54,213 nucleotides of DNA from a virus. How positions within the stretch are numbered: position 1 is the first letter of the stretch; the number at the start of each line of letters is the position of its first letter. The stretch lies in the UHGV virus genome UHGV-0121358; one strand, written 5' to 3'. Below, piece by piece: positions 32,764 to 52,198 of the stretch. The position numbers and the translations under genes are program-made. The notes beneath the pieces are model-generated. The model had not been told where the DNA came from and did not search any database. It saw only the letters and a list, made by a program, of their open reading frames with translations.

Positions 32764-32945
32764 TATTTCCCCCCGTAACGAGCAATAAGTTGTTTACGAT
32801 CAGAAATAGACTGGACTAACTTTTTCTCAAGCTCTTTCAATGCAAGCAATTCGCGCATATGAAAAGCCCGGATTTGTCGGACTGTAGCTAAATCATGCTC
32901 ATCGCGCTGAATATCTATTTGCAGATCTTTAACTTCGTTTTTCAT
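32763..32945 (-). CDS. hypothetical coiled-coil protein
   Basis: Track ORF; overlaps neighbours by 1-4 nt. Confidence 0.4.
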   Translation of the reverse strand: MKNEVKDLQIDIQRDEHDLATVRQIRAFHMRELLALKELEKKLVQSISDRKQLIARYGGK

Positions 32946-33951: not shown

Positions 33952-33965
33952 AAAAACCACCCCGA

Positions 33966-34142
33966 TTATTCTTGATTCTCTGTTTCGTTCAGCCTTTCGG
34001 CGTGTCCAGCCCTTAGCAAGCGATCTACGCATTCGTTGCACTCGTTACATTCTCCCTTCTTCGTGCTGCATACACTGCACATTGCACGCATGACACTTTC
34101 CCGTTCATAGTCGTCATGCCATTGGTAATTCTCAAAAGACAT
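33966..34142 (-). CDS. ninF: NinF-like Cys-rich small protein (58 aa)
   Basis: Own translation (below track cutoff); AAGGAGAGAG SD; MSFENYQWHDDYERESVMRAMCSVCSTKKGECNECNEC...; RESVMRAMCSVC resembles lambda NinF (KESVERALTCANC). Confidence 0.5.
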   Translation of the reverse strand: MSFENYQWHDDYERESVMRAMCSVCSTKKGECNECNECVDRLLRAGHAERLNETENQE

Positions 34143-34302
34143 AATGCTCTCTCCTTTTTCAGGTGATTTTTACGCATTTCAGCGTTACCGGATTTTTAAA
34201 GAGCATTTTGTTTGTTTGAAGTATACAAAACGGATACATGCGAACAAACAATAAAGCGCCATTATGTGATCCGCATCACACAATGACGCCATTTTGTAAA
34301 CA

Positions 34303-35067
34303 TCAATCCGGTAAAACGCGGTTAAGAGTAGTCCGCGTGATTGCCCGGTCATTAGCCAGGAATACAGCACGGGCGAATCCTCGCGGCGTGAGTGAGCGGA
34401 TCATCTTAGTGCGCTTCGACTTCCCGCCTAACTTCGCGTGCTGCTTACTATCTTCCCACTCATCAGGCATTGGTACAGGCCGAAATAGCGGCTGTTTAAA
34501 TCCGTTGCCGCACCAGATACAAGTTTTCTTCGTGTAGGCGTCGCGGTCGGCGATGTATTCCGGGAAAGCTGGATGCTTATCATCTTCCGGCAGGTAGCCA
34601 CCGTAAGCGCACGGATTAAAAATGAAATCCGGCTTACGCCATAACGTTGACAGTGCTCCAACCGGGTTTTCCACCATCCACGGGACGTGGTACATGTCAG
34701 CAAGCGTTTCTACCAGTTTTGCGTTGTATGCCGCCTTCTGCTGGAAGTAAGGATCTTTTTCACGCTTGCTTGAAAACCAACGAGCGCCGGACACCGCAAG
34801 ATCGTCGCACGGAGGAAAGCCCAGGATAATGTCAGGATCTGGATAAACAGACAATTCAGGGGAGAACATTACCAGGAAATGGCTGTCAATCCATACGTTG
34901 ACATATTCAATGTTAGGATGAATGATCTTGACGCCTTCATAATCGCCATGATTAGCGCCGTCATAATTGAAACAATAACACTTATAGCCAGCGTCGGCCC
35001 AATCTTTAACGGCGTACCCGCTGCCGTCGTACAGCGACCACACCACCCAATTTCTAAGCCCACTCAT
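34303..35067 (-). CDS. C5 cytosine DNA methyltransferase-like protein (noncanonical PCD motif)
   Basis: Track ORF; motif-IV-like GFPPCDDLAVSG and motif-VI-like VENPVG; 254 aa is short for a C5-MTase. Confidence 0.5.
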   Translation of the reverse strand: MSGLRNWVVWSLYDGSGYAVKDWADAGYKCYCFNYDGANHGDYEGVKIIHPNIEYVNVWIDSHFLVMFSPELSVYPDPDIILGFPPCDDLAVSGARWFSSKREKDPYFQQKAAYNAKLVETLADMYHVPWMVENPVGALSTLWRKPDFIFNPCAYGGYLPEDDKHPAFPEYIADRDAYTKKTCIWCGNGFKQPLFRPVPMPDEWEDSKQHAKLGGKSKRTKMIRSLTPRGFARAVFLANDRAITRTTLNRVLPD

Positions 35068-35639
35068 TTCCTACCCTCGAACGTAAAATAGCGACGAATG
35101 ATGATAGTGATCACCGTTACAGCCGCCATTTTTGAGATGAATTGCATAGCTGATATTTCCGGCATAAATGCCATAAACGATAGCGTGGGAAAAATTAACG
35201 CATCACCAATGGCGGACGCTATATTCGCAGGCCAGCGTTTTGAATCGAAATCGCCAGGTAAAATCCGGTAAACACCGCCAGAAATAAGCGCACCGGAAAC
35301 AACCGCGACGAATGACGCGATCGCCACCATCCCGGCATCGTAGTTTATCAGCACCGTGATTGCGCCAGCGGCGGCGCATGTTGTAGCCGACCATTTCAGG
35401 CCGCCGTCATATAACAGGAAGTCACGGATCATCATATTGACGCACACGGCGGCTACCGTGGTGATCGGAATTACCCACGGGCCGCAGTGGTTAACAATAA
35501 GGTTAATGATCACGAAAACGGCGACATAAATGCAGGCCAATAACCTGTCAATTGTCACCCTTTCCATTTTTATGATACCCCGCCGCGCGTAGTAGTGATT
35601 CGTTATCACACTTACCATCAAGCCTGTTTGCAAGGACAC
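35064..35639 (-). CDS. integral membrane protein, unknown function
   Basis: Track ORF; several hydrophobic segments; start uncertain (M1, M8 or M25). Confidence 0.5.
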   Translation of the reverse strand: MSLQTGLMVSVITNHYYARRGIIKMERVTIDRLLACIYVAVFVIINLIVNHCGPWVIPITTVAAVCVNMMIRDFLLYDGGLKWSATTCAAAGAITVLINYDAGMVAIASFVAVVSGALISGGVYRILPGDFDSKRWPANIASAIGDALIFPTLSFMAFMPEISAMQFISKMAAVTVITIIIRRYFTFEGRK

Positions 35640-35705
35640 TATTTAGCGTTACCTTGCTGCTGGCGATTAAGTCGCCTGGTATTGAGGCATTCTTACAGCC
35701 GCAAT

Positions 35706-36056
35706 TTAACGGTATATCAAAACAGCCCGTTTCTTTCTTTGGGCTTCCTCCCGCTCCGTTAATATTTGCTCCGCTTTTAGCGCGTTATAGCTAATCAAAT
35801 CAATTAGCGTGTCTGTCGGATCTGATTTATTGCTTAAAATGGCCTCTAAACGCGCCTCCTTGAGACAAATTAGCAGATCCCATACATCAAGCGGGGTTAA
35901 ATCTGCTCCCTTCTTAGCGTTGTAAATAGTGGCTATTTTTGGCGCTGATTTTTCCTCTTTTTTGTCGTAGCCGTTTTGTTTACCTCTTTGCTCTATGGTT
36001 TCCGCTGCAAGTCTCAATAAATCTGCTGCCTTAGTCATTATCTGCACCTCTTGCAT
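35706..36056 (-). CDS. hypothetical protein
   Basis: Track ORF; overlaps 3' end of methyltransferase gene. Confidence 0.45.
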   Translation of the reverse strand: MQEVQIMTKAADLLRLAAETIEQRGKQNGYDKKEEKSAPKIATIYNAKKGADLTPLDVWDLLICLKEARLEAILSNKSDPTDTLIDLISYNALKAEQILTEREEAQRKKRAVLIYR

Positions 36057-36570
36057 ATAGCTCTTTACGTGTTATCTGCGTGAAAATACATTCATGTCTG
36101 CACCGTGGATGCCAGATCAAGAACAAGCTCCCCTTATTGTTTCCGCTTGCTGGTTTACCCGTCGCGGCATTAATAAACGCCAGCCGCCCGCGCGTGATTA
36201 ATCGGCATTCATTTGCCGTCTCCACGCCGTTCATAAACCAACTAACAGAAGTGTCGGCTGGCAATAACATTACACAGCCAATATGATTTCGGTGGTGTTC
36301 AAACGCCGCCTTATCAACGAATGGTCCCGGATTAGAATATGGTGGATTCATCCAGACATATTCACCAGGCATCGCCACCGCTCCCCACGGGTAATTAAGC
36401 GTGTTCATTTCTTCGGTTATATATCGCGGAACTAATGCATTTGCCTTGTTTGCCGCCACGTCCGCGACGAATTCGAATTCCCGATCCATTCCTCTAAAAA
36501 CAGGTTTCGGCGTCTGCCATAGGTCTTTTATTTCTTTCGGCGTATGACTGCCGCCGTAATCATTTTTCAT
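36031..36570 (-). CDS. phage N6-adenine DNA methyltransferase (Dam-like)
   Basis: Track ORF; NPPY catalytic motif (VWMNPPYSNPGPF), size ~180 aa typical of small phage Dam-type MTases. Confidence 0.7.
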   Translation of the reverse strand: MKNDYGGSHTPKEIKDLWQTPKPVFRGMDREFEFVADVAANKANALVPRYITEEMNTLNYPWGAVAMPGEYVWMNPPYSNPGPFVDKAAFEHHRNHIGCVMLLPADTSVSWFMNGVETANECRLITRGRLAFINAATGKPASGNNKGSLFLIWHPRCRHECIFTQITRKELYARGADND

Positions 36571-36580
36571 TGCGTCCCCC

Positions 36581-36814
36581 TTAGAAATAATCCTGCTCCG
36601 TCCCCCAGCGGTTATTCAGATACCCCACCAACCACACAAAACGCTCAATGCTGATTAGCGGGGCGACCTTGCGATAATGCTTGTCGAGTATCAGCCGCGT
36701 GGCTTTATCGCTGTAGCCGTTCTTCTCTACCTCCGCTTTGCAGGCCGAAAGCGCGGCGCGGGCGGCAGTCTTTACGGCGTTAAATTGCGGCTCTGACATA
36801 TTGAATAAGGCCAT
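36581..36814 (-). CDS. hypothetical protein
   Basis: Track ORF 36581..36973 truncated to ATG at 36814 (MALFNMSEPQF...). Confidence 0.4.
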   Translation of the reverse strand: MALFNMSEPQFNAVKTAARAALSACKAEVEKNGYSDKATRLILDKHYRKVAPLISIERFVWLVGYLNNRWGTEQDYF

Positions 36815-36818
36815 AGGA

Positions 36819-37070
36819 TCACCATGTGTCAGTCCAATCCGGCGCGGCAGTCCAGCAAAAACCAATGAATGCGCTAACAGCCAATAAAGCGCGGGCTGCA
36901 AAAAGAATATTCCCAATGTCGTTAAATTCAGGAAGCGACCACGTAATAAACATAGCCCCCAGCATAATAACACCGATAACAGTCAGGGCCGCCAGGAAAA
37001 CAAAAAGCGTAGCCAAAAGCCACGCCCCCAACCAGTTAAAAAAGCTCTTAAGCATTTTAAACGTCCTCAA
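36819..37070 (-). CDS. hypothetical membrane protein
   Basis: Track ORF; three hydrophobic segments. Confidence 0.4.
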   Translation of the reverse strand: MRTFKMLKSFFNWLGAWLLATLFVFLAALTVIGVIMLGAMFITWSLPEFNDIGNILFAARALLAVSAFIGFCWTAAPDWTDTW

Positions 37071-37260
37071 TTACCCCGCCTTTCACGCGCTCTTTAATAT
37101 CCCATACGTGAGGCTTGCATATTTCTTGATAGTAGTGATCCGGCCTGCTGCCGAAATACCATTTGCCATCCATATAAAAATAAACGCCAGAAAAATTTCC
37201 TGGCGCTGCCTTTGTTGCTGCTTCTGGAATTTTCCATTCCATGTAATGTTTAAATTTCAT
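37057..37260 (-). CDS. hypothetical protein
   Basis: Track ORF. Confidence 0.4.
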   Translation of the reverse strand: MKFKHYMEWKIPEAATKAAPGNFSGVYFYMDGKWYFGSRPDHYYQEICKPHVWDIKERVKGGVIEDV

Positions 37261-37444
37261 GAGTTTTTAAATAACCTCTTCTGAATGCTTTGATGTAAAT
37301 TCCTAATCTCCTTATATGTTGAACGCCATCAATAAGACGTATTAAATAAATCGCTCCTTTTGCGTCAGATACAAATCTACACCCGAAACCAATGCCAACT
37401 AATTTTAGGCTATCAGGTATTCGATAATCAGTTTCTTGTTCCAT
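37250..37444 (-). CDS. hypothetical protein
   Basis: Track ORF. Confidence 0.35.
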   Translation of the reverse strand: MEQETDYRIPDSLKLVGIGFGCRFVSDAKGAIYLIRLIDGVQHIRRLGIYIKAFRRGYLKTHEI

Positions 37445-37542
37445 ACATTACCTCATATGGTATTCAATAAACCACCTGATAAACAGGTATAAGGCAATAA
37501 AACCCCAGAAACAGCACATATAAAACAATGTATCGTCCATAA

Positions 37543-37818
37543 TTAAGCCTCAATAACACCGTAATCAAACGTGCCTAAATACCGTTCGATACTTACAACC
37601 TCAATACCATCAATACACCGTTTCCACACAGACACCTGGCTTTCATTTTCTCTGAAGTGCATATTAGAAAGCACTTCATCGGCTGGATAGTCTTTCCCGG
37701 CGACGTAGGCATCGTGACCTACGCCACCTTCTACGCAATAAAGCATCAATTCGCGTTCCATTTTTGCTTCCTCCGCACCGTAAACCTTTTGATTTCGGCT
37801 TACAAAACGGATATACAA
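37543..37818 (-). CDS. hypothetical protein
   Basis: Track ORF; start uncertain. Confidence 0.4.
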   Translation of the reverse strand: MYIRFVSRNQKVYGAEEAKMERELMLYCVEGGVGHDAYVAGKDYPADEVLSNMHFRENESQVSVWKRCIDGIEVVSIERYLGTFDYGVIEA

Positions 37819-37860
37819 TCACAATACAAAATGTATATTTATGTGATCGGAATTACTCGG

Positions 37861-38481
37861 TTAATGCAGTACACGTTTTCCCTGTTCAGGCGTCGGCTGT
37901 GCGTTTTTCCGTGCGTAATTAAGCACAGCGATAGCCGCCTGTACGCCGAAATCATTTGCACGCATATCATTGCCAACCATTTCACCGTAAAACAATGGCA
38001 TGAGCGCTTTTACTTCTTCCTCTTTGTGGCCTTCCTCAATGCATTTCTGCAACATCTTAACCTCAAAGATATTTTTCATCAGGACGCGCATAGAATGCAG
38101 TGAAACACTACCAAGCTGTTCCTTGTTCAACGGGAAAATGACAGCACTTCCGAACGCGAGCGGATCAACCTCTTCCGGCACTGGTACGCGTCCGAATTCT
38201 TCCTCCATGCGCTTCACAAAAGTAAGAGAGAATACATAACGCGCTACCGATGTTTTTTCTTCCATACTTAAAGACACGTAATCGCGGATTGACGCACCCA
38301 TCACAATATCAACAACCTGTAGCGCCAGATTCAAATCAGCGTCATACGCGCCAGCTTCCATATCTTTCAATACTTCGTGATAATCTTTAATTTCCACTTC
38401 GTGAAAGTTTGCATCATCTGTATAGCGAGTGATCAACATACCTTCATTACCGAGAGAGTAAGCTGTTTTGATGTCGTTCAT
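37861..38481 (-). CDS. hypothetical protein (206 aa)
   Basis: Track ORF. Confidence 0.5.
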   Translation of the reverse strand: MNDIKTAYSLGNEGMLITRYTDDANFHEVEIKDYHEVLKDMEAGAYDADLNLALQVVDIVMGASIRDYVSLSMEEKTSVARYVFSLTFVKRMEEEFGRVPVPEEVDPLAFGSAVIFPLNKEQLGSVSLHSMRVLMKNIFEVKMLQKCIEEGHKEEEVKALMPLFYGEMVGNDMRANDFGVQAAIAVLNYARKNAQPTPEQGKRVLH

Positions 38482-38494
38482 GATATTTATCCTT

Positions 38495-38827
38495 TTATAG
38501 TGGGTGATGCCATTTCATTTCAGTTTCTGAATTAAACGGGTTTCCTTCGCTTGAAAGGAATAAATCACGCTCCCGTTTCAGTTCTTCCGGGCTTATTTCT
38601 ATTTCATCAATCTGACCGAACGATCCCGGCATCATTCGTTTTAAATCAGATAGCGGACGCATAAGGCCGCAGCCGCGTAACAGCATATCGACCGCGAATT
38701 GTCTACGTCCGCCAGCGTCATTGAAGCGCCGCGCCCAGGGCACAACCACGATCCGGCGTTCGAATTCGATAAATAGTGATAGCTTGTTTGTTTCGCTATC
38801 ATATGCTTTATGGAATTTAATTTTCAT
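38495..38827 (-). CDS. hypothetical protein
   Basis: Track ORF. Confidence 0.45.
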   Translation of the reverse strand: MKIKFHKAYDSETNKLSLFIEFERRIVVVPWARRFNDAGGRRQFAVDMLLRGCGLMRPLSDLKRMMPGSFGQIDEIEISPEELKRERDLFLSSEGNPFNSETEMKWHHPL

Positions 38828-39008
38828 TTAACACCTCAACATATTGTTCAAGATGCCATTGACCCACCTCATCATCTTCCTCGTCAAATAATGTTACCTG
38901 ACCACCAGGCCCAAAAGAAAAGGCAGCTATGATAAATTTATACCCATACCACGTACGGATCTTTTCGCCGCCTTTTAAATCTTTAACTTTTACCAATTTT
39001 ATAGCCAT
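38817..39008 (-). CDS. hypothetical protein
   Basis: Track ORF. Confidence 0.4.
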   Translation of the reverse strand: MAIKLVKVKDLKGGEKIRTWYGYKFIIAAFSFGPGGQVTLFDEEDDEVGQWHLEQYVEVLNEN

Positions 39009-39271
39009 ACGCCGAACATCCCATTCAGTCCGGCGAACAATTTCCGCCAGTGGTCTTCAACATAAGCCCGGAACGGCTTAACGCGAACGTTACGGGCCTT
39101 CAGTTCGATCTTGTCAAAGAAGCGCGGCTCTATAATTGTTCCGTCCAGATATTTAACCAGGATCGGACGCTCAAGATCGTTATATGTCTTATTCAGCACA
39201 ACCAGACCAGGGTCTTTACGGTATTCCGGGAGCACGACCAGATCACCCGTTTTGATATTCATGAATGGCAT
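38999..39271 (-). CDS. hypothetical protein
   Basis: Track ORF 38999..39274 (GTG) with ATG at 39271; ATG overlaps stop of upstream mini-ORF. Confidence 0.45.
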   Translation of the reverse strand: MPFMNIKTGDLVVLPEYRKDPGLVVLNKTYNDLERPILVKYLDGTIIEPRFFDKIELKARNVRVKPFRAYVEDHWRKLFAGLNGMFGVWL

Positions 39272-39387
39272 CACATCACCCCGCCGATATAGCTAATAAT
39301 TGCCGCAGTCGCGCCAGCTATTACCACCATGAAGACGAAAGCGACCACATAGAAAACAGCCTTGACAGTATTTTTGTCGACTCGCAT
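39271..39387 (-). CDS. possible 38-aa membrane mini-protein (MRVDKNTVKAVFYVVAFVFMVVIAGATAAIISYIGGVM)
   Basis: Own translation; GAGG SD 6 nt upstream; below track cutoff. Confidence 0.3.
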   Translation of the reverse strand: MRVDKNTVKAVFYVVAFVFMVVIAGATAAIISYIGGVM

Positions 39388-39394
39388 ATAAACC

Positions 39395-39502
39395 TCACAT
39401 GTCAGTAATCAGCTTAACAATCGCCACAGTGATATAGAGTGACGCACTAAGGTAAACAGCCGCCACAGCAACGGCGGCGGATAACATTGCAATCTTTTTC
39501 AT
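39395..39502 (-). CDS. possible 35-aa membrane mini-protein (MKKIAMLSAAVAVAAVYLSASLYITVAIVKLITDM)
   Basis: Own translation; GGAGGGTGG SD; ATG overlaps stop of upstream gene (ATGA). Confidence 0.3.
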   Translation of the reverse strand: MKKIAMLSAAVAVAAVYLSASLYITVAIVKLITDM

Positions 39503-39750
39503 TTGCCACCCTCCGCAATGAACTTATCAAGCCATTTGTTATTAGCCAGCCGTTCGGCATCTTCGCCAAATGATTTACGTTCGCTTAATTCCTTGCGCGT
39601 CGGGAAAGGCCATTTATCGTGCCAGCCCGCCGACGTTTCGAATTCATAGTTATCGCCACCGAATTCGACAAATACATCACCATCGTCTGAGGTTTCCGCA
39701 GTCCCCTGAAAACCGCGCCCGTTATTTTCGCTTAATGTTGTAGCTGTCAT
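39499..39750 (-). CDS. hypothetical acidic protein
   Basis: Track ORF. Confidence 0.45.
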   Translation of the reverse strand: MTATTLSENNGRGFQGTAETSDDGDVFVEFGGDNYEFETSAGWHDKWPFPTRKELSERKSFGEDAERLANNKWLDKFIAEGGK

Positions 39751-39762
39751 GGTAATACCTCA

Positions 39763-40041
39763 TTAATCGTTAATAACCTTGCCCATACGCCCGCGATATT
39801 TGCGCATTCGTGGATCAACATATTCAGGCCACTGCATATCATCAGTTTTCTGTAGCGGGTAAGAACTCGCTCGCCAGTTGTCAAACCAGATTTGCTTCGC
39901 GTACAGGTCACTAAATCTTTTCGCCATTCGATCCGCTGCCGTGCCGCATAAAAAAAGCCCGCGATCGATTTGATCGCGGGCTTCTTTTAATACTTGCTCT
40001 TTTGTTCGTGGTTGCGGTGGCGGTTTTAGACAATCACTCAT
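39763..40041 (-). CDS. hypothetical protein
   Basis: Track ORF 39763..40173 truncated to ATG at 40041, 16 nt after the SSB stop. Confidence 0.4.
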   Translation of the reverse strand: MSDCLKPPPQPRTKEQVLKEARDQIDRGLFLCGTAADRMAKRFSDLYAKQIWFDNWRASSYPLQKTDDMQWPEYVDPRMRKYRGRMGKVIND

Positions 40042-40057
40042 CGCTAACACATTGATT

Positions 40058-40477
40058 CTAAAAAGGAATATCGTCGTCGAAGTCCATCGGAGGCGGATTA
40101 TTCCCGTTATTATTCTGCTGCTGCGGCGGCGCTTTCTGCTGCTGTCCTTGCTGCTGGCCTTGTTGGTTAACATTCATGAATTCAAATTCATTAACCGCCA
40201 CTTCTACCGCAGTCCCCTTCGTGCCGTCGTTCCGGTCATATTGCCGAACATCCAGGCGACCGCTTACCACTATTTTTCCACCCTTGCGGATATGTGGCGC
40301 TAATTTTTCCGCACGCTCACCAAATACCAGGCAAGTGATCCACATTGTCCGCTTGTTATCACCGTAGCCATTCGTTACAGCTAACGGAAAACTACCAATC
40401 GCTTTACCGTTTTGCGTGTAGCGAACTTCCATGTCGTTTCCGATATTCCCGCCCAGCGTAATTGAATTCAAACTCAT
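40058..40477 (-). CDS. ssb: single-stranded DNA-binding protein
   Basis: Track ORF; OB-fold-like N-terminal region, Gln/Gly-rich linker and acidic C-terminal tip DFDDDIPF characteristic of SSB. Confidence 0.85.
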   Translation of the reverse strand: MSLNSITLGGNIGNDMEVRYTQNGKAIGSFPLAVTNGYGDNKRTMWITCLVFGERAEKLAPHIRKGGKIVVSGRLDVRQYDRNDGTKGTAVEVAVNEFEFMNVNQQGQQQGQQQKAPPQQQNNNGNNPPPMDFDDDIPF

Positions 40478-41121
40478 TAACCCATCTCCCCGTTAAGCTC
40501 TGCGACCCGGATGTCATAAACATCTTTTGCCTTGATTCGATGTTCCGATCCTTCCGGTAGTAATTTCCAGCATTTGCCAAATATTTCACGCAGCTTGTTA
40601 GCGTCCTGCGCTTTCGCTGCTGCATCACAGAAACGTGCTAATACTTCATCAGGATTTGGCGGCGCTTTCTTCTGCTGCGGTTGTTGTTTTGGTGGGTTTT
40701 TCTGTTGTCGCGGCTGCTGGCCTGTCTGCTTCGCGTAAGCATCAGTATCAGGATCGCGAGCATCATCTATACAGAATAAACCGTTCAAAGCATATTTACG
40801 CGCGTAACTTGATGTTGCTCCTGTTAGCTGGCTGGCGTCCATACCCTTCTTGTTTTCTTCCTCCCTGGCATAAGCAGTTACCGCTATTACGTCTTCACCG
40901 TCGCTTAGCGTCGCCGTTGCTTTCACATAATAGCGATTGCCGATCAGGACAATTTCATCACTAACAGTCAGCGTGATATTTTGAAGCAGTGGTTTAACCG
41001 CCTCTAAAATATCCTCCGCCGACCTGTAATTATATCCACCAAAATTATTACGCTGATTTTTCGGCGCGTTCAGCGTTTGCTGAATCGTCCATAGCTTTTT
41101 ATGTAACTCTGTTTTCACCAT
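40477..41121 (-). CDS. erf: Erf single-strand annealing recombinase
   Basis: Track ORF; blocks LNAPKNQ, EDILEAVKPLL, DEIVLIGNRYYVKATAT, AREEENKKGMDASQLTGATSSYARKYALNGLF closely match my recollection of P22 Erf. Confidence 0.85.
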   Translation of the reverse strand: MVKTELHKKLWTIQQTLNAPKNQRNNFGGYNYRSAEDILEAVKPLLQNITLTVSDEIVLIGNRYYVKATATLSDGEDVIAVTAYAREEENKKGMDASQLTGATSSYARKYALNGLFCIDDARDPDTDAYAKQTGQQPRQQKNPPKQQPQQKKAPPNPDEVLARFCDAAAKAQDANKLREIFGKCWKLLPEGSEHRIKAKDVYDIRVAELNGEMG

Positions 41122-42058: not shown

Positions 42059-42706
42059 TTATGGCAGGTTTACGATCTTCGCATCAACCACCACGCCTAT
42101 AATTTTTGATTCTGGATTCATAGGGATTGGCGGATACAGCGGATTGAGCGAACGTAAAAGCCTTTGACCTCCATCAATAATCAACTGTTTAAACGTCGGT
42201 ATCTGCCCTTCCTCAAGCTGGGCTATAACCAGTTTGCCGTCAATAGCTGGCGCGTGCGGGTCCACAAGTATCATCGTCCCCGCCGGGATGCTCAACCCCT
42301 GCGGCGCGTTCATTGATTCACCTTTGGCAACCAGCCAGTAACTGTCATCTGAACAAATAACGCTAGTCGTAACGTGTCGTAATGCTGAACGCCTTGCGTC
42401 ATCCATATTGTTTACTGTGTCCTTCCAGTCAATAACCGGGTAACTACCTAAATCACGCGGCGGCACGGCCTGAAGTGTATTAGAAACAGAATCATCAATG
42501 ACCATGCCATCATGTGTAACAGTAAACTGCCGACGACCAAGCTCGCGCATAATCCGCGCAATATCTTCAAGATTTGGCTCTCGGCGACCGTTCAGCCAGT
42601 GTGACAGGCCGCCTTTAGTTATCCCCATACGATCCGCGAGCGAATCCTGGCTCATGCCCTGCGCCCGCATGAGCTGCTTTGCTAAGTCATACCATTTTGT
42701 TTTCAT
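42059..42706 (-). CDS. cI: cI-type repressor (HTH_XRE N-terminus, LexA/S24 peptidase-like C-terminus)
   Basis: Track ORF; N-terminal HTH (QDSLADRMGITKGGLSHWLNG), C-terminal S24-like region with conserved Ser (GESM) and Lys (PTFKQL); divergent from replication operon. Confidence 0.85.
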   Translation of the reverse strand: MKTKWYDLAKQLMRAQGMSQDSLADRMGITKGGLSHWLNGRREPNLEDIARIMRELGRRQFTVTHDGMVIDDSVSNTLQAVPPRDLGSYPVIDWKDTVNNMDDARRSALRHVTTSVICSDDSYWLVAKGESMNAPQGLSIPAGTMILVDPHAPAIDGKLVIAQLEEGQIPTFKQLIIDGGQRLLRSLNPLYPPIPMNPESKIIGVVVDAKIVNLP

Positions 42707-42820: not shown

Positions 42821-43011
42821 AAGACGCAAGGAAAAAGATAACGGAAGGCACAAAAAGGCACTTACCTTATGCTCTTTAAAAATCCGGTGTCGCTGCGAAG
42901 CGAAAAACAAATATCACGCAACGGCGGGATCTGTTGAGCGGTCAGTCACTGCTATCTAATGCTAATGGGATGCCCGCCCGCGCGTTCACTCTAACCATAG
43001 GAGAAAATGCG

Positions 43012-43269
43012 ATGAGTATAAACATGATTAGTAAAGCATGGAACGTAAAACTTAATAGCCCGATTCAAAAACTTGTCTTAATGGCTCTGGCTGAAAAGGC
43101 AGATAACAAAGGACGGGTACATGATGCATCACGCAAAGAAGTAGCCGCAATGTGTGAACTTCCTGTTCATACGGTACATGATGCCTTCGCCGCGTTAATG
43201 GATAAAGGATTTGTTTGTCGTCTTGATGCATTCAGTGATGTCTATGTAGTGATGTTGCCGGAGGGATGA
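43012..43269 (+). CDS. HTH DNA-binding protein (first gene of rightward operon)
   Basis: Track ORF 42934..43269 truncated to ATG at 43012 with AGGAG SD; KLVLMALAEKADNKGRV...SRKEVAAMCELPVHTVHDAFAALMDKGFV resembles HTH domains of replication initiator N-termini. Confidence 0.55.
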   Translation: MSINMISKAWNVKLNSPIQKLVLMALAEKADNKGRVHDASRKEVAAMCELPVHTVHDAFAALMDKGFVCRLDAFSDVYVVMLPEG

Positions 43270-43272
43270 TCT

Positions 43273-44325
43273 ATGAAGTGGTTTAAGCATGACAGCGATG
43301 CGAACCGCGATGAAAAACTTCAAAACGTTTTGTTAGATTATGGCCTGGAAGGGTACGGGCTTTATTGGTATTGCCTCGAACTAATAACTTATGACGTAGA
43401 TCAGCACAATCTGACTTTTGACCTACGACATGACGCGAGAATCATTGCGCGAAACGTCGGATCGACTGAAAAACGTATAGAAGAAATGATGAAATACTTC
43501 ATCGAAATTGGTTTGTTTGAATGTTCTCAAGGCCACATAACTTGTTTAAAGTTATTGAAAAGGCTTGACCAATCAATGACTTCTAAAAGCGCGTACAGGG
43601 CCGCCATAAACACAGCTAAGGAGCAATTAAAATTAGAAAAGTTAATCAATCCAACACAAAAAGGTCATGATAGGGTCATGACCGGGTCAGGAAAGGGTCA
43701 TGAATTAGAATTAGAAGTAGAAGAAGAAAGAGAAAAAGATATATACACTTCGTGTATTGTCGAAAATGAACAAAAAATGGTCAATCATGATGGCGTAAAC
43801 GAAGCGGCGTTGCGTTGCCTGGCCTTCTACAACGACAAGGCAGGATGCAAATGTCGTGATGCGAAGCCATTCATCGAACTACTGACAGAAACAAAAACAC
43901 GTAAAGCGTATACGGAGGATGAGATCACATTAGTGATTGAGTGGGCTTTAACGCAATGGCGTAGCCGTGGTGGAACACCTAAGCCTATCAATATTTGCCG
44001 GGTAACTAAATTTGATGGGTATCTGACTGATGCTGAACAATGGCGCAAACTGTCAGCCACTGCAAACGCTGCCGACGTGGTGGAAGCATTTAACAGCACG
44101 TTTGACGGCCTGTTACCACCTGTCGAACTGGATCGGGATCTTGAACGCAAGATCTATGCGTTCACTGACTACCTGAAAGACAAAAGCATTAACGGCTTTG
44201 TCGCCTACTTCGAAACATTCAAAAACACGGCTTCAGATTTTTACTTCGGCAATGGCTTCACAGCGACACTTGATTTCCTGCTTAAACCAAAAACGCTACG
44301 CGACACACGCGCAGGCGCTCTTTGA
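43273..44325 (+). CDS. replisome organizer / replication initiation protein (DUF4373-like N-terminus)
   Basis: Track ORF; N-terminus MKWFKHDSDANRDEKL...YGLEGYGLYWYCLEL matches the Lin1244/DUF4373 pattern as I recall it; followed by helicase gene. Confidence 0.7.
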   Translation: MKWFKHDSDANRDEKLQNVLLDYGLEGYGLYWYCLELITYDVDQHNLTFDLRHDARIIARNVGSTEKRIEEMMKYFIEIGLFECSQGHITCLKLLKRLDQSMTSKSAYRAAINTAKEQLKLEKLINPTQKGHDRVMTGSGKGHELELEVEEEREKDIYTSCIVENEQKMVNHDGVNEAALRCLAFYNDKAGCKCRDAKPFIELLTETKTRKAYTEDEITLVIEWALTQWRSRGGTPKPINICRVTKFDGYLTDAEQWRKLSATANAADVVEAFNSTFDGLLPPVELDRDLERKIYAFTDYLKDKSINGFVAYFETFKNTASDFYFGNGFTATLDFLLKPKTLRDTRAGAL

Positions 44326-44458: not shown

Positions 44459-44560
44459 ATGGACGGTAAACACGTTTTCGCCCTGGCCTTTGCCATCGCT
44501 GCTGCAATCGCTGTTAACGTCGCTTTGTTCGGCGGTTTGTTCCTTCTTATCAATCCATAA
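44459..44560 (+). CDS. possible 33-aa hydrophobic mini-protein (MDGKHVFALAFAIAAAIAVNVALFGGLFLLINP)
   Basis: Own translation; GAGAGGA SD 8 nt upstream. Confidence 0.3.
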   Translation: MDGKHVFALAFAIAAAIAVNVALFGGLFLLINP

Positions 44561-44713: not shown

Positions 44714-45769
44714 ATGATTGCCACTTATCATGTGAAACTAAATTGTAAGGACACGCAATTACTATCTGTTAATAATCTTGTTTCTGAACTTGAAATCGAT
44801 AGGCTTAAATCATTTGTTAAATACTCTGATCTTTACGGATTTGAGGAATACAAGGATTTTATTATTGATGGTGATGATGTGTATATCACACCTATAACGT
44901 TTATTAGATTCGTTACACCTGGTAAATATAGACATTATGAATATAATGAAAATTGGGTTAAGCCAGTTATTGAATCTTGTGGATTAGTTGATTTACAAGA
45001 TGTGTTTAATAAATATTCAAATAATACCAGAAAAGATAGTCCTTATGCTTATAATTATGTTTTATGGTGTAACAACTATGTTGAAACTAGTGATACTCCC
45101 GGGCGATGCTCTGTGTATGTGTCAAAGGAAGATGCTGAAAAGTATAAAAAATGGTTGTTCGTTACTCGCGGAGTATCAATAGAAAAACTATGGGTAAGGT
45201 TGTTTCATTCAAGCGATATTGCAGATCCAGATACGTTTTTAAATGAACATCTTAATAATGATGAGTTTACCATTGATTTAAATATTGAATATTTTACAGT
45301 TAAAACAAATTATGGATATGAAAGATATATTAGCGATAAGATAGCGGAAAAGTATCATACATGGGGTCAAAATAAAGGTCTTAGTAATAATTTTGAATGC
45401 GGTAATTATAACGACATAGAAAACTTTATTGAATTAAAAAGCGACAAGAATGTAATTGAGGAAATAAAAAGGGAATGTGACGAGAAATTATCAGAAATGA
45501 GTTATAATTGTAAAAATATGATTAGGAAGCGTTATGAACATGCTGGATTAACTATGTACGAAAAACTAAAAGGAGTTAAATTAATAAGGCAATATCCTGT
45601 TAATGTTGCTGGCAACAAGTATTTTATTGATGGCTACGATCTTGTGAATAATATTGCTGTAGAAATTGATGAATCACATCACAAACGGCAAGCAAAAAGC
45701 GATGCGATAAGACAAAAACGCATTGAGGATTATTTGGGGTGCAAGTTTTTTCGTTGTGCTATATCCTGA
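44714..45769 (+). CDS. AT-rich moron protein with C-terminal Vsr/DUF559-like PD-(D/E)xK endonuclease motif
   Basis: Track ORF 44633..45769 truncated to ATG at 44714 with AAGAGGTA SD; strongly AT-rich codons; C-terminus YFIDGYDLVNNIAVEIDESHH...D..R...I...LG..FFR. Confidence 0.6.
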   Translation: MIATYHVKLNCKDTQLLSVNNLVSELEIDRLKSFVKYSDLYGFEEYKDFIIDGDDVYITPITFIRFVTPGKYRHYEYNENWVKPVIESCGLVDLQDVFNKYSNNTRKDSPYAYNYVLWCNNYVETSDTPGRCSVYVSKEDAEKYKKWLFVTRGVSIEKLWVRLFHSSDIADPDTFLNEHLNNDEFTIDLNIEYFTVKTNYGYERYISDKIAEKYHTWGQNKGLSNNFECGNYNDIENFIELKSDKNVIEEIKRECDEKLSEMSYNCKNMIRKRYEHAGLTMYEKLKGVKLIRQYPVNVAGNKYFIDGYDLVNNIAVEIDESHHKRQAKSDAIRQKRIEDYLGCKFFRCAIS

Positions 45770-45803: not shown

Positions 45804-46922
45804 ATGTCGCAAAGAAAAATCAGCGATGAGCAATTGATCGCTGAATATAACAACGGTTTAACGTACAAGCAGATTGCTGAAAAATATGGCATGTCAAAAC
45901 GCAATGTCGAGCGCCTGGGCGCAAAACTGGCGAAACGTGGTTTATTATCAACACGCCGCGCTCCTGGTTTTGGCGTCAATGGCGAGTCGTTGCTAGTCGA
46001 TAAGAACGGCAATGTTATCATGCGCTGGATTAAAACAGCCCGTGACCGCGAAGAAATGGAACAGCTAATGGAAGCGGCCCGCGACGCTTTCACTGATGAA
46101 ATACCACGCGCGGAGGCTGTGCCAGTGCCTGAAATTGATTTTCAAAAAAGCCTGGCACTTTATCCGGTGTTTGATCTGCATATCGGGGCGCTTGCTCATA
46201 AAGCTGAATGCGGTGAGAGCTACGATACTGGGATCGCTGAGCGCGTGTTGAATGACTTCTTTGACTACGCTGTTGGCGCTGCTCCGATGTCTGAAAAAGC
46301 TGTTTTACTTCTCGGCGGTGATGTGCTTCACACTGACGGCCTGTTACCAGTGACGCCATCAAGTAATCACGTTTTAGATTGTGATTCACGCTACGCAAAA
46401 CTGGTTTATGTGGCGATCCGGTCGGTCCGGCGTGCGGTCGGGAAGATGTTACTAAATCATAAGGATGTCGAGATCCAGGTATTATCCGGTAATCACGACC
46501 AATCAGGTATGATCTGGCTACGTGCTGCGCTTGCGGCTTTTTACGAAGATGAGCCGCGCGTGACTGTTGACGTGTCACCTGCCATTGTCCACCACACACA
46601 GTATGGCAAAACATTCCTTGCTTACCACCACGGGCACACTATCAAAAAGCCGGAAAATTTATTGTCTGCTTGCGTAGCTGACTGGCGGGAGGATTTCGGA
46701 AGGTCTGTGGCTGTTTACGCTCACACTGGACATCTGCACCATCAATCAGTTGTTGAAACATCACTTGGAATAGTTGAGCACCACGGCACATTAGCTGGCA
46801 AAGACGCATATTCAACTAATGGCGGCTGGCGGTCGCGGCGTCTGGCAGCGGTGATTATTTACAGCCCGGATCATGGGGAAATTGGGCGCTTTGTTTATTA
46901 CCCTGAATATTCCATTTTGTAA
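45804..46922 (+). CDS. HTH-containing calcineurin-like metallophosphoesterase
   Basis: Track ORF; GAGGAA SD; N-terminal HTH (LTYKQIAEKYGMSKRNVERLGAKL); phosphoesterase motifs DLH, GGDVLH, GNHD, GH-H. Confidence 0.65.
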   Translation: MSQRKISDEQLIAEYNNGLTYKQIAEKYGMSKRNVERLGAKLAKRGLLSTRRAPGFGVNGESLLVDKNGNVIMRWIKTARDREEMEQLMEAARDAFTDEIPRAEAVPVPEIDFQKSLALYPVFDLHIGALAHKAECGESYDTGIAERVLNDFFDYAVGAAPMSEKAVLLLGGDVLHTDGLLPVTPSSNHVLDCDSRYAKLVYVAIRSVRRAVGKMLLNHKDVEIQVLSGNHDQSGMIWLRAALAAFYEDEPRVTVDVSPAIVHHTQYGKTFLAYHHGHTIKKPENLLSACVADWREDFGRSVAVYAHTGHLHHQSVVETSLGIVEHHGTLAGKDAYSTNGGWRSRRLAAVIIYSPDHGEIGRFVYYPEYSIL

Positions 46923-46940: not shown

Positions 46941-48362
46941 ATGGTAACTGAGCAAATAAACTCACTACGGCAGGAACGTGAAGCGTCAGTTATCGGCGGG
47001 CTACTGTTAGGTGGCCTTACTCCTAACGCGCAAGATGTTCTCGCCACACTTGATCCTGAAGTGTTCACGATCCCGCTTTATAAACGTGCGTTTGAAGTTA
47101 TCCGGGCGCAAGCCAGAAACAGAAATCTTATCGACGCGTTATTGGTTGGCGATGAGATTGGCAATGAAAACTTTGTACCGCTAATGCAAACGGCACGATC
47201 GTGCCCTTCTGCTGCCAACCTGAAAGGATATGCGCAACTACTACAGGAAGAACACCAGCGTCGGCAAATGCTGGAACTAATGGAAGACATTCGCTACAAG
47301 CTGGAAACAGGGACGCTTGAAGTCGTCAGGGAGACGATGAAAGATTTTGATTCCCGGTATTCAAAATTAAAGGTAACAAAAGATCAAATTATCCCGGTGC
47401 TGTTGCGCGATGCGGTCCAGGAATACACGGAAGTGTTAAGTAAACGCATGGAGTGTGGCGTGAACTCTGACAACATCAAAACAGGGATTGACCCACTCGA
47501 CGAAATGTTAGGCGGCATTAACGCTACTGATCTGGTGCTTATCGCCGGACGCCCAGGGTCTGGTAAATCGGCGTTGGCGTTGGCAATTGCCCGCGCGGCG
47601 GCTGAACGCCCATACCCTGGAGGCGAAGGTCAGCGGGTCGGCGTTTTGCTGTTCACGCTTGAAATGTCGCTCGATCAGATGACTGAACGCGCTATCGCTG
47701 GCGCAGGGAACTTGTCAACGGATTGCTTACGTAATCCGGTAAAACTGGATGACGAAGGATGGGCGCACGTTGCCCAGGGAATGAGCGCACTTGCTGATCT
47801 CGATGTGTGGATTGTTGATGCATCACAGTTAACTGTCGAGGAAATACGCGCCACAACTGAACGAATGAAGCAGGATTATCCCAACCTGGGTATGGTAATG
47901 ATTGACTACATCGGGTTAATGAAGCTGGCTAAGGCAGAACGTCACGATCTCGCTGTAGGGCAATTGTCGTGGTCATTGAAAATGATGGCGAAAGAATTGC
48001 GCGTACCAGTGGCGGCGCTGGCGCAATTATCCCGCCGCGTCGAGGAACGACCGAACAAGCGACCGAACAATTCTGATCTGCGCGATTCCGGCAATCTTGA
48101 ACAGGACGCAGACCGGATCATCATGGTATACCGCGACGGCTACTACAACGAACAATCTGTTGCACGCGAATACATGGAGATTATCGTTTCAAAAAACCGT
48201 CACGGAAAAACCGGGACTGTTTACCAGCGTTTTGACGACAACGGCAACATATTACCGTGTGACCAGGCCCGCGCGGCGTCAGCTTGCATCCAGTCAATGC
48301 AACAACGTCCGGCGGTAAGCCGATTCTCGCCACGAAACAACCAGAATAAAGCATCTTTTTAA
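46941..48362 (+). CDS. replicative DNA helicase (DnaB family)
   Basis: Track ORF; GGAGG SD; Walker A GRPGSGKS, Walker B-like VMIDYIGLM, and C-terminal motifs typical of DnaB-type helicases. Confidence 0.9.
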   Translation: MVTEQINSLRQEREASVIGGLLLGGLTPNAQDVLATLDPEVFTIPLYKRAFEVIRAQARNRNLIDALLVGDEIGNENFVPLMQTARSCPSAANLKGYAQLLQEEHQRRQMLELMEDIRYKLETGTLEVVRETMKDFDSRYSKLKVTKDQIIPVLLRDAVQEYTEVLSKRMECGVNSDNIKTGIDPLDEMLGGINATDLVLIAGRPGSGKSALALAIARAAAERPYPGGEGQRVGVLLFTLEMSLDQMTERAIAGAGNLSTDCLRNPVKLDDEGWAHVAQGMSALADLDVWIVDASQLTVEEIRATTERMKQDYPNLGMVMIDYIGLMKLAKAERHDLAVGQLSWSLKMMAKELRVPVAALAQLSRRVEERPNKRPNNSDLRDSGNLEQDADRIIMVYRDGYYNEQSVAREYMEIIVSKNRHGKTGTVYQRFDDNGNILPCDQARAASACIQSMQQRPAVSRFSPRNNQNKASF

Positions 48363-48441
48363 TTAACTTGAGCAAACGGCTTACCGGAAAGTTTACCGCT
48401 TTCTGGTGGCTGTTTTCGCGCTTAAATTGAGGCTAAAAACA

Positions 48442-48999
48442 ATGAGCATTGAACTTGAAACAAAAATTATCAACATCCTTGAACTGGATGGCATCGACAC
48501 AATGCAGCAGTTACGCCAGAAAACAGGATTATCAGCGGAATATGACGAAGCAGGATGCTTGCCTGAGACAATTAAACACTTAATCGACACTGGCATTGTC
48601 GAGCGTGTATATACATATTTCGGACCACGCCGCCGCTTGCTTGGTTATCGGATTAAATATTTGTATGCACAACGTCGCGATCGTGTGGCGGCGTTATTTA
48701 GTGACTACAGCGTCAAAAAGCGTATGCGTGACATTAGCGCTGAAACAGGTATCCCGTGGAATTATCTTTCGCGCACCCTGCGTTTAATGGTGCTTGATGA
48801 GACACTTTGCATTGATACAAATAAACATGGCCTTAATTTTTATTCACTGTTTAAACCTGGGCGCTTCGGTCACGCTAATGATCTTGCATTTGATTTTGAC
48901 AGCCGCCTGAATGAATACCGGAAAAATAACGGCCTGCTGCCGGATAAACCAGTATTTGAGATCGAAAAACTTAATGGTGAAACTGGATTGGAATTATGA
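48442..48999 (+). CDS. hypothetical protein
   Basis: Track ORF 48406..48999 begins at GTG; in-frame ATG at 48442 with GAGG SD. Confidence 0.5.
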   Translation: MSIELETKIINILELDGIDTMQQLRQKTGLSAEYDEAGCLPETIKHLIDTGIVERVYTYFGPRRRLLGYRIKYLYAQRRDRVAALFSDYSVKKRMRDISAETGIPWNYLSRTLRLMVLDETLCIDTNKHGLNFYSLFKPGRFGHANDLAFDFDSRLNEYRKNNGLLPDKPVFEIEKLNGETGLEL

Positions 49000-50684: not shown

Positions 50685-50902
50685 TGGATAAGATCGGGAC
50701 AATACTTATTAATCGTGAGCAAGTGCAAAAAATGTTAGGCGGGCTTAGTAAGTCCGCCTTTTTTAAGCTCGTTAAAAAATGGAAAGATTCTGGAACTCCT
50801 TTTCCTGAACCTGTTAAGGGGATGCCAGCATTAAAGCGCGGCGGATCTCTTTACCGTTATCAGGACGTTATTTCATTTTGTAAATCAATGGGCTTCATGT
50901 AG
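50684..50902 (+). CDS. AlpA/excisionase-like small DNA-binding protein
   Basis: Track ORF; INREQVQKMLGGLSKSAFFKLVKKWKDSGTPFPEPVK fits the AlpA/Xis HTH pattern; 3' end overlaps the integrase 3' end on the opposite strand. Confidence 0.55.
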   Translation: MDKIGTILINREQVQKMLGGLSKSAFFKLVKKWKDSGTPFPEPVKGMPALKRGGSLYRYQDVISFCKSMGFM

Positions 50903-52059
50903 TAATCAGCCAGTTTATTCATCGCCTCGATTTGTTCCCTCACATAGTCATACTGATCATATATAGCCATCATTCCCGCCAGTTTATGACCTAAAACCTT
51001 TTCGGCTACGTGTGGCGCAATGCCAAGCGCTGAAAGGTTTGTCCTTACAGTGCGGCGCAGATCGTGACATGACCACGACTCGCCGCCCATCCTTAGCATT
51101 AAATCCCTTGCAGCTGTTTTCGGCACGCTCCTGTCTACCGCTTCATTCCTTCCAGAAAGCACGGGAACGAAGATAAAATTAAAGCCGTGCAAATCCATAG
51201 CCTCACGCAATAAATCAACGCTAACTGCGGATAAACCGCGTTTAAACTCGTTTCTGTTCTTACTCAATGCGCCAGGAACGGTCCACACACAATTATCAAG
51301 ATCAAAATGCTCGCGTTTTGCGTTTGTTAGTTCGCTTGTTCTGCATCCGGTGAATATAATCAGCTTCATCAATATCTGATTTAGCCGCGCCATTTTTGAA
51401 CTGTCTATAATGCTGATTAGATGGTGAATTTCTTGTATTGATAAAACTCGCTTCCTTTGCGCCGGGTTTTTCCCTACATCCTTCACGCGTAGCAACGATA
51501 TGTCGTCACGCTCCACGCGGCGGCGGCGCATGGCATATTTTATAACCGCCTTCATCCTGTTTAAGACTATTCCGGCCTGAACGGGTGCGCCACCATTAGC
51601 AACCTTTCTAAAAATCCCCTCCCACATTATGGCGTCCATATCATCGACGATATAGCTACCGCATGGTCTGACAATATGCTTACTTAGCATCGCCTCGACT
51701 TGCTTATAGTTGACCATGTTTCTTGCCTGCGGTGATTCCATGTACTCCCTAACAATATCTTCAATCGTTGCCCGTGTAGTAACGCGGGACAAGTGCATTC
51801 TTTTTACGATCGATGGATCTCGCCCTGAGTTTAATACCTCCTTATGCTCCGCCACCGCCGCGCGGGCTTCTTTGAGTGTTATTTCTCCGTAAGTGCCAAT
51901 CTTCATCCGTCGCGGCTTGCCGTTGAATCGGTAGCGATACTGAAAAGATATAACGCCGCGCGGGCTTATCCTGGCAGACAATCCGCCCGCGTCCGGGACT
52001 TCTTCCGGGCCGTCATATGGCTTGCCGTGGATGTTTCGTAATTTGGTATCTGTAAGCAT
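50860..52059 (-). CDS. int: tyrosine integrase (P4-type)
   Basis: Track ORF 50860..52107; ATG at 52059 gives MLTDTKLRN... typical of P4-like integrase N-termini; C-terminal R...HDLRRT...Y catalytic region. Confidence 0.85.
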   Translation of the reverse strand: MLTDTKLRNIHGKPYDGPEEVPDAGGLSARISPRGVISFQYRYRFNGKPRRMKIGTYGEITLKEARAAVAEHKEVLNSGRDPSIVKRMHLSRVTTRATIEDIVREYMESPQARNMVNYKQVEAMLSKHIVRPCGSYIVDDMDAIMWEGIFRKVANGGAPVQAGIVLNRMKAVIKYAMRRRRVERDDISLLRVKDVGKNPAQRKRVLSIQEIHHLISIIDSSKMARLNQILMKLIIFTGCRTSELTNAKREHFDLDNCVWTVPGALSKNRNEFKRGLSAVSVDLLREAMDLHGFNFIFVPVLSGRNEAVDRSVPKTAARDLMLRMGGESWSCHDLRRTVRTNLSALGIAPHVAEKVLGHKLAGMMAIYDQYDYVREQIEAMNKLADYYMKPIDLQNEITS

Positions 52060-52105
52060 AATTTGGTCACTATTTGGTACACACATTTTATGCATGGATA
52101 GTATC

Positions 52106-52198
52106 ATGATAGAAAACGATATGACACGATAGAATAAATATTTCTTTTAGAATCAATATGAAGCGGTGACGATGTGACACGATATGAAATGATAGAAA
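52106..52198. repeat. direct repeats upstream of integrase (candidate arm-type sites)
   Basis: ATGATAGAAA at 52106-52115 and 52189-52198; TGACACGATA at 52122-52131 and 52175-52184. Confidence 0.4.

Follow-up and report, generated by a model that had tools for sequence, protein, structure and literature searches.

An HTH-metallophosphoesterase of the phage T1 gp16 family between the initiator and helicase genes of an mEpimmI-group phage

RESULTS

The gene and its protein

The virus genome UHGV-0121358, a stretch of 54,213 nucleotides that we refer to as the window, carries on its plus strand an open reading frame (ORF) for a 372-aa protein, located between genes for an O-like replication initiator and a DnaB-family helicase (Table 1). 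An earlier note, made from the letters alone, had described this protein as a helix-turn-helix (HTH) fused to a calcineurin-like metallophosphoesterase (MPE), and had suggested that it might be either replication-associated or a partner of a nuclease-like gene just upstream. The ORF is real: it runs from an ATG through 372 codons to a TAA stop, with GAGGA ∼9 nt 5′ of the start codon, and it contains the quoted HTH string and four quoted motifs in order, with a fifth motif besides. The note had read the domains correctly: the protein is a two-module enzyme, in which a small N-terminal HTH is joined to a binuclear MPE with intact catalytic residues. It is the mEpimmI-phage orthologue of phage T1 gp16 and, as such, a routine member of a common phage family.

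The window itself belongs, as a phage or prophage, to the mEpimmI group (mEp021, mEp554, mEp010, MagusPhagus), whose members are Nus-dependent, non-lambdoid temperate coliphages (PMC11893012). Genes of its rightward (+) arm are arranged in the order small winged helix-turn-helix (wHTH) protein, O-like protein, 33-aa ORF, low-GC slot gene, MPE, DnaB, MarR/Ren-like ORF and NinB.

Table 1. Features of the initiator-to-helicase region and of the MPE protein, in window coordinates
Feature	Position	Strand	Basis and remarks
Small wHTH protein, 111 aa	42934–43269	+	Matches N-termini of replication-initiator PHROGs (phrog_4617, 4.2e-22)
O-like replication initiator, 350 aa	43273–44325	+	Lin1244_N (6.9e-11); phrog_20981, phrog_345, phrog_428
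Four GGTCATGA iterons, 11-bp spacing	43663–43703		Inside O-like gene, beside AT-rich stretch (GC 0.36)
33-aa hydrophobic ORF MDGKHVFALAFAIAAAIAVNVALFGGLFLLINP	44459–44560	+	GAGAGGA ribosome-binding site; between O-like gene and variable slot
Variable-slot gene ('nuclease moron')	44714–45769	+	DUF559 (E 1.4e-4) and PADLOC mREase_II (2.3e-7), both C-terminal and weak
HTH-MPE gene, 372 aa	45804–46922	+	T1 gp16 orthologue, PHROG 704 member
Three-helix HTH, sigma-70 region 4 / LuxR-GerE type (aa 8–44)	45825–45935	+	Pfam, AlphaFold model, relatives
Beta-hairpin and helix joining HTH to core (aa 58–96)	45975–46091	+	AlphaFold model, conservation
MPE catalytic core (aa 114–365)	46143–46898	+	AlphaFold model
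MPE motif I, D124-L-H126	46173–46181	+	D124 and H126 in 60/60
MPE motif II, G171-G-D173-V-L-H176-T-D178	46314–46337	+	D173 60/60, G172 59, H176 58, D178 57
Family-specific loop T184-P-x5-L191-D192-x-D194-x-R196, between motifs II and III	46353–46391	+	Conservation
MPE motif III, G229-N230-H231-D232	46488–46499	+	N230 and H231 invariant; D232 55/60
MPE motif IV, H276-G-H278	46629–46637	+	H276 60/60, G277 59, H278 54 (D in other 6)
MPE motif V, G309-H310-L-H312-H313	46728–46742	+	G309 and H312 60/60, H310 59
DnaB-family replicative helicase, P22 gp12 type	46941–48362	+	PF03796 (E 2e-75), PF00772; 57% identity to P22-type gene 12
197-aa ORF 3′ of dnaB	48406–48999	+	Weak PHROG matches: MarR-family regulator 1.3e-7, Ren-like exclusion 2.5e-4

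In the AlphaFold model, the HTH is formed by helices at aa 8–16, 21–27 and 32–44, with a predicted local distance difference test score (pLDDT) of 72–83; the string LTYKQIAEKYGMSKRNVERLGAKLAKRGLL from the note corresponds to aa 19–48. Pfam returns only sub-threshold matches for aa 10–58 of the window protein, namely Rrf2, Sigma70_r4_2 and HTH_IclR (E 1e-3 to 4e-2). To gauge conservation, we sampled 60 cluster representatives of the family, which are 29–56% identical to the window protein. Nine of these relatives match Sigma70_r4_2 (best 1.5e-9), while other Pfam matches are to GerE, HTH_8 and HTH_23, and a profile built from the 60 sequences gives a weak GerE match in the PDB. Every member of the sample has 49–98 residues ahead of the core. 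As all 60 carry an N-terminal extension, and many match HTH families of Pfam, the HTH-plus-MPE fusion is the normal architecture of the family. A search for repeats beside the MPE gene revealed no convincing operator-like site for the HTH.

The linker consists of two strands (60–65 and 71–77) and a helix (79–96) in the same model, and contains the near-invariant residues G69 and W75, both kept in at least 90% of a family alignment. Alignment of the most distant relatives begins at about aa 50–58. The core has the beta-sandwich fold of MPEs. Its last strands span residues 346–365 and the protein stops at 372, leaving it without a capping domain.

A widespread family of phage proteins

Residues 4–368 of the window protein match positions 2–387 (of 390) of the profile for PHROG 704, 'DNA repair exonuclease', with an E value of 8.5e-140. 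BLASTP aligns the protein to phage T1 gp16 (ST16, YP_003929.1) with 58% identity over 375 aa (E 7e-158), and mEp554_11 is 95% identical. By tblastn, relatives are found in 2048 of 50,697 phage records, or ∼4% of sequenced phages. Identities are 55–67% for Drexlerviridae, 40–46% for Jerseyvirus, ∼42% for Erwinia phage Era103 and 38–40% for Klebsiella and Yersinia phages, and fall to 26–34% for phages of Vibrio, Ruegeria, Pseudoalteromonas and Flavobacterium. An exhaustive HMMER search recovered 4391 clusters (50% identity) at E ≤ 1e-3, 953 of them at E ≤ 1e-30, and family members are typically 370–420 aa long. Hence the impression given by the earlier note, that this is an unusual or novel protein, did not survive. 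The family is very large, looks restricted to phages, and always retains the two modules together with the full set of metal and catalytic ligands.

Among 5426 complete E. coli genomes, 35 carry the gene, in every case as a single chromosomal copy annotated 'hypothetical protein'. The T1 protein ST16 is annotated 'DNA repair exonuclease', and the Era103 record reads 'similar to p16 protein of phage T1'. The 'exonuclease' or DNA repair name of the family is annotation, a guessed label. According to a 2026 paper (PMC13164509), the gene is persistent in 508/522 Drexlerviridae, where it lies directly upstream of the lysis cassette.

Gp16 of T1 has the same HTH, linker and MPE with identical motifs, its length being 377 aa versus 372 aa in the window. 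The genes differ in their settings. In T1-like phages, the gene is the last of the replication/nucleotide block before holin and endolysin genes, and no DnaB is present (PMC13164509). The window phage, a temperate member of the mEpimmI group, instead has it squeezed in between the genes for an O-like initiator and a DnaB of P22 type.

The two modules do not always travel together. One related protein, P0108 (locus L004, 3923–5044), shares 89.5% identity with the window protein over its N-terminal 57 aa, but identity drops to 48% in the MPE core. P0108 comes from the same phage group, and we conclude that the two modules recombine independently and that the N-terminal part is group-specific. 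P0119 is likewise mosaic; the P0108 and P0119 cores, at 47–48%, are more distant than T1-like cores (60–78%). In the mosaic relative of locus L004, D takes the place of H278 and S that of H313.

Catalytic residues are conserved

The five motifs by which the MPE superfamily is recognized (DxH, GD, GNH[DE], H and GHxH) are all present, in canonical order, with motif IV between GNHD and GHLHH. Motif II has the GDxxH form, as in Mre11. Residues D124, H126, D173, N230, H231, H276, G309 and H312 are invariant in the 60 relatives, and position 310 is H in all except one of them. Thus the motif residues picked out in the earlier note are borne out by alignment. Outside the canonical motifs, E135, G137, R252, D334 and R346 are also near-invariant, and the loop between motifs II and III is well conserved in the family (T184 in 60 of the 60, R196 in 59, D192 in 58, L191 in 57, D194 in 57 and P185 in 54). 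Residues 188–193 of this loop have low pLDDT.

Curated libraries largely miss the protein. The Pfam Metallophos models (PF00149 and PF12850) show no match to it even at E 0.1, because the family is too divergent for these models; among the 60 relatives, eight match PF00149 and eight PF12850 at E ≤ 0.01, with best values of 1.2e-4 and 2.3e-4, respectively. NCBIfam has nothing for the MPE protein, and PDB sequence searches, started either from the protein itself or from the profile of the 60 relatives, found nothing for its MPE part. The evidence for an MPE therefore comes from its motifs, its fold and its match to PHROG 704; general curated libraries alone leave the assignment unproven.

Gene neighborhoods across the family

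To see which genes accompany family members in general, we collected 318 loci, equivalent to 71 lineages at 70% identity, grouped the five flanking genes on either side into clusters, and annotated those clusters that recurred most often. Related loci were retrieved with sub-alignments of the family. Phage lysozyme (endolysin) is the neighbor in 20 of the 71 lineages, followed by HNH_3 endonuclease (12), NinB (8), HAD_PNKP phosphatase (6) and deoxynucleoside monophosphate (dNMP) kinase (6). SSB, the terminase large subunit and N6/N4 DNA methylase are each found in five lineages. NinG, the N-terminal domain of dATP/dGTP diphosphohydrolase, GIY-YIG and HNH endonucleases are each found in four, and DnaB in three. 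No universal partner gene emerged among these recurrent neighbors. The gene sits at the distal end of a DNA-metabolism block, often just before lysis or packaging genes, and frequently has homing endonucleases at its side, a trait it shares with other conserved phage genes.

Individual phages illustrate the range of settings. In Salmonella phage ST44, the MPE gene lies among genes for primase, SF2 helicase, a RecE-like protein, Erf and SSB, and in Era103 it lies between a 5′-3′ exonuclease/endonuclease pair and PseT kinase plus DNA ligase. Jerseyvirus has it in a small island among tail genes. T1 encodes a primase together with an SF2 helicase. T1, Jerseyvirus and Vibrio phages are among the many phages in which a family member has HNH or GIY-YIG genes next to it.

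Position next to lysis genes raises the question of whether the protein acts in gene expression. Under such a scenario, the HTH would bind promoters, for example those of lysis or late genes, and the MPE would dephosphorylate proteins or act as a sensor, in a role comparable to that of lambda NinI. The resemblance of the HTH to sigma-70 region 4 and LuxR is consistent with this, as are the location immediately upstream of the Drexlerviridae lysis cassette (PMC13164509), the frequency of endolysin genes nearby, and the NinB and NinG neighbors seen in several lineages. We nonetheless consider a role as transcriptional regulator or protein phosphatase very unlikely. The protein does share with NinI that it is a phage enzyme of the MPE superfamily whose gene lies close to genes of the ninB/ninG type, in an accessory part of the early region. 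As a separate matter, we rule out that it is a NinI-like phosphatase of the PPP type, as the GDxVDRG/GNHE signature and profile homology are both missing.

Comparison with characterized metallophosphoesterases

In fold, the protein comes closest to small phosphodiesterases and to two kinds of nuclease, Mre11/SbcD and PolD-DP1. PPP phosphatases lie clearly further from it than this nuclease branch (SbcD, Mre11, PolD DP1) does.

Likeness to Mre11/SbcD extends to the MPE fold and the style of the motifs (DxH, GDxxH, GNHD, H, GHxH). It ends there, as the window protein has no capping domain and no Rad50-binding helices, and has an N-terminal HTH instead. No SbcC/Rad50 partner was found among the neighbors, the scanned ORFs of the early arm, or the annotated recurrent neighbor families. 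When the family profile was compared with E. coli SbcD by hhalign, only 17 columns around GNHD were aligned, with a probability of 3%. Capping domain, partner and profile homology all fail, the PDB profile search finding neither Mre11 nor SbcD, and membership of the Mre11/SbcD family is ruled out. The earlier note had proposed a profile search to distinguish Mre11/SbcD, PP-family and NinI-like enzymes. Assignment to the MPE superfamily and to PHROG 704 holds; assignment to Mre11/SbcD or to PPP/NinI does not.

Resemblance to archaeal PolD DP1 and the eukaryotic polymerase B-subunits is at the level of the fold only, since the window protein is without OB domain or polymerase partner. Another phage MPE, A10ZJ24 gp48 of mycobacteriophage cluster A, is early-expressed, contains the five motifs, and is described as a phosphodiesterase/DNase that aids phage DNA replication, with a reported role in host genome damage that silences defence genes (PMC12287305). 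It is a shorter and different MPE, with motif I at residue 10, and so is without the HTH module. Mycobacterium is absent from the ten most frequent organism names in our tblastn matches.

Several of the best structural matches, namely Rv0805 (a phosphodiesterase of cyclic nucleoside monophosphates), MJ0936, YfcE and an Ap4A (diadenosine tetraphosphate) hydrolase, would fit an enzyme acting on small molecules. Its substrates might then be cyclic nucleoside monophosphates, cyclic oligonucleotides, Ap4A or 2′,3′-cyclic phosphates, and it might serve nucleotide supply or blunt signalling-based defences. Neighbors such as dNMP kinase, HAD_PNKP phosphatase and the dATP/dGTP diphosphohydrolase N-terminal domain point in the same direction, although each of these associations is limited to 4–6 of the 71 lineages. 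Moreover, it is difficult to see why an enzyme of soluble metabolites should have a conserved DNA-binding-type HTH in every member, the MPE protein has no PADLOC match at E ≤ 0.01, and no MPE is known to us among anti-defence enzymes. We regard a small-molecule phosphodiesterase or phosphatase as unlikely.

The replication locus of mEpimmI phages

We compared 41 related loci, 38 of them from IMG/VR and the others from mEp554, mEp021 and one ENA contig. Their order is constant: cI, small wHTH, O-like, slot, MPE, DnaB. The gap between MPE and dnaB, stop codon included, is 22 nt in 36 of the 41 loci and 19 nt in one, and an HNH_3 gene (∼540 bp) intervenes in the remaining four; the spacer in the window is 18 nt. 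Association with replication, one of the two roles floated in the earlier note, is thus upheld by position, with the gene ∼22 nt upstream of dnaB in 37/41 loci and an HNH insertion in the other four. Inserts of the HNH_3 homing-endonuclease type are located at L004 5037–5582, in L042, L044 and L049, and at mEp021_10 (L334 3963–4466).

The downstream neighbor is a DnaB-family helicase (PF03796), as the note had stated. In P22-type phages, genes 18 and 12 are immediate neighbors without an intervening MPE, and it follows that the module in the window is a gp18/gp12-type pair to which the MPE has been added. The note was therefore correct that the MPE is foreign to canonical lambda/P22 replication modules. 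A scan for promoters and terminators around the MPE gene gave no more than expected by chance, with no convincing internal promoter or terminator, and a terminator-like hairpin lies directly 3′ of dnaB. Because the genes share a strand, the spacers between them are short, and no convincing terminator-like site precedes the hairpin 3′ of dnaB, the MPE is probably co-transcribed with the O-like initiator and DnaB in an early rightward operon.

Could the MPE be a component of the initiation machinery? We can rule it out as the replication initiator, given that ori-like iterons and an AT-rich region lie inside the O-like gene. It is also ruled out as an obligatory helicase loader, as P22-type modules lack it and DnaB is a neighbor in 3/71 lineages. 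No loader family (lambda P, DnaC/IstB-like) appears among the Pfam, PHROG and NCBIfam matches of the MPE. Since the closest helicase, of P22 gp12 type, pairs with gene 18 in the absence of an MPE, the gene is accessory rather than a loader or initiator. The note had allowed that homologs might turn out to be routine helicase loaders or primase partners. They did not, and outside the mEpimmI group family members are rarely near DnaB.

A looser connection to the helicase deserves separate consideration. The protein might act on phage DnaB at the origin by loading, recruiting or regulating it, and its MPE fold would then be mainly a scaffold, as in eukaryotic polymerase B-subunits; its place beside dnaB is what brings such a replisome accessory to mind. 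P22 gp12 is independent of DnaC, and the nearest helicases, which are of this type, work in modules without an MPE. Invariant catalytic residues argue against a dead scaffold. Most family members reside in phages without DnaB, T1 uses a primase and an SF2 helicase, and HNH genes can insert between MPE and dnaB. A helicase-specific function is accordingly highly doubtful.

Between the O-like gene and the MPE, the 41 loci have a slot of 399 to 1622 bp that is an insertion hot spot. It contains the gene of the window in five loci, whereas 15 loci have a DUF723/T5orf172-like gene there and a further 15 a Bro-N-like gene; in another five, the slot is short (399–494 bp) and has no ORF of at least 100 aa, and one locus is unclassified. 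The nuclease-like gene noted upstream of the MPE is indeed present in the window, its C-terminus being DUF559 / PD-(D/E)XK-like and resembling methyl-directed restriction endonucleases, with a weak DUF559 match. The GC content of the slot gene in the window is 0.28–0.32, compared to ∼0.5 for the MPE gene. The suggested partnership of this gene with the MPE is ruled out by its co-occurrence in only 5/41 loci, by the unrelated genes, or the lack of any ORF of at least 100 aa, in the slot elsewhere, and by its foreign GC content. The slot gene is an independently mobile insert, not an MPE partner. Because unrelated slot genes share one upstream leader, translation of the slot gene in the window probably begins not at the GTG at 44633 but at the ATG at 44714, which is preceded by AAGAGGT.

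Other features of the region

The iteron region within the initiator gene is probably the phage replication origin, as in lambda O. Repeats of AATTAAAATTAGAA are found by the iterons, at 43625 and 43703. Initiator function appears to be split over two adjacent ORFs (42934–43269 and 43273–44325); across relatives, the small wHTH protein (28–100% identity) is much more variable than the large O-like protein. The 33-aa ORF may encode a small membrane peptide, and both mEp554 (mEp554_13) and MagusPhagus (CDS0006) have an annotated ORF of 102 nt in the equivalent place. Several relatives carry a replacement of the 197-aa ORF that is only 34–38% identical.

On the minus strand, the arm begins with cI (42059–42706) and continues with Erf, SSB, Dam, NinG, RusA and Q. 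The layout is unusual for a Nus-dependent temperate coliphage (32041–41121, minus strand, and 50860–52107, minus strand), in that the Erf-to-Q genes run leftward and lead into the late genes. The rightward arm has the replication genes and NinB, followed by an oppositely oriented integrase, in agreement with the published mEpimmI group (PMC11893012).

DISCUSSION

We propose, with confidence that is evenly balanced, that the protein is a DNA-tethered, Mn-dependent phosphodiesterase of nucleic acid that helps phage replication or recombination. In mechanistic terms, the enzyme would be of the Mn2+/Fe type, and its stand-alone catalytic core would carry out Mre11/SbcD-like nuclease or end-processing chemistry. 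The HTH would hold the enzyme on DNA, replacing the Rad50/SbcC clamp and the capping domain. Its role would be an accessory one, in which DNA ends and structures are trimmed or opened during replication and recombination-dependent concatemer formation, and it would work alongside phage Erf, SSB, NinB, NinG and RusA in Erf-dependent recombination. Alternatively, the same activity might be directed at degradation of host DNA.

Four lines of evidence point to a nucleic-acid substrate. These are the HTH present in every member, the consistent DNA-metabolism setting of the gene, the GDxxH/GNHD motif style of Mre11-type nucleases, and the presence of the nuclease branch among the top structural matches, with PPP phosphatases clearly further away. 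The HTH is proposed as the tether because the protein has neither a capping domain nor a Rad50/SbcC partner. There is also a precedent for a phage MPE acting as a DNase, in the unrelated A10ZJ24 gp48 (PMC12287305).

A number of observations weigh against this proposal. The fold match cannot separate nucleases from cyclic-nucleotide or lipid phosphodiesterases, with MJ0936, LpxH and Rv0805 scoring as high as SbcD and Mre11, so that by fold alone a small-molecule phosphodiesterase fits equally well. At the sequence level, the family has no tie to SbcD beyond motif III, nor any profile match in the PDB for its MPE part. The HTH is weakly scored in the window protein, and it could mediate protein contacts or transcriptional regulation instead. 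The commonest neighbor is the endolysin, which fits a last gene before the lysis cassette and is silent on DNA chemistry. Finally, full-text literature searches returned no functional study of any family member, only annotation-level mentions (PMC13164509, PMC11893012).

A bolder version of the nucleic-acid phosphodiesterase proposal is that the T1 gp16 family constitutes a new class of stand-alone, DNA-tethered, Mre11-like nuclease at the phage fork or origin. The group-specific N-terminal module of mEpimmI phages would then physically couple the enzyme to the O-like initiator or DnaB, the core being swappable between lineages, as is seen in the P0108 mosaic. We regard this version as speculative and unlikely.

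The copy in the window is ordinary, one more instance of a very common phage gene. What is specific to the window is the placement of the gene inside a P22-type initiator-helicase pair in mEpimmI phages, adjoining an insertion hot spot. The locus shows that a P22-type initiator-helicase module can accept an accessory enzyme beside a hot spot for selfish nuclease-like genes. The family as a whole is near-core in relatives of phage T1 (508/522 Drexlerviridae) and occurs in ∼4% of sequenced phages, yet its name is only guessed. A temperate, genetically tractable E. coli phage in which the gene lies between a defined initiator and helicase would provide a convenient system for establishing function. 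If the family does prove to be a class of fork or origin nucleases, it would represent an unrecognised, near-universal replication/recombination factor in T1 and thousands of other phages.

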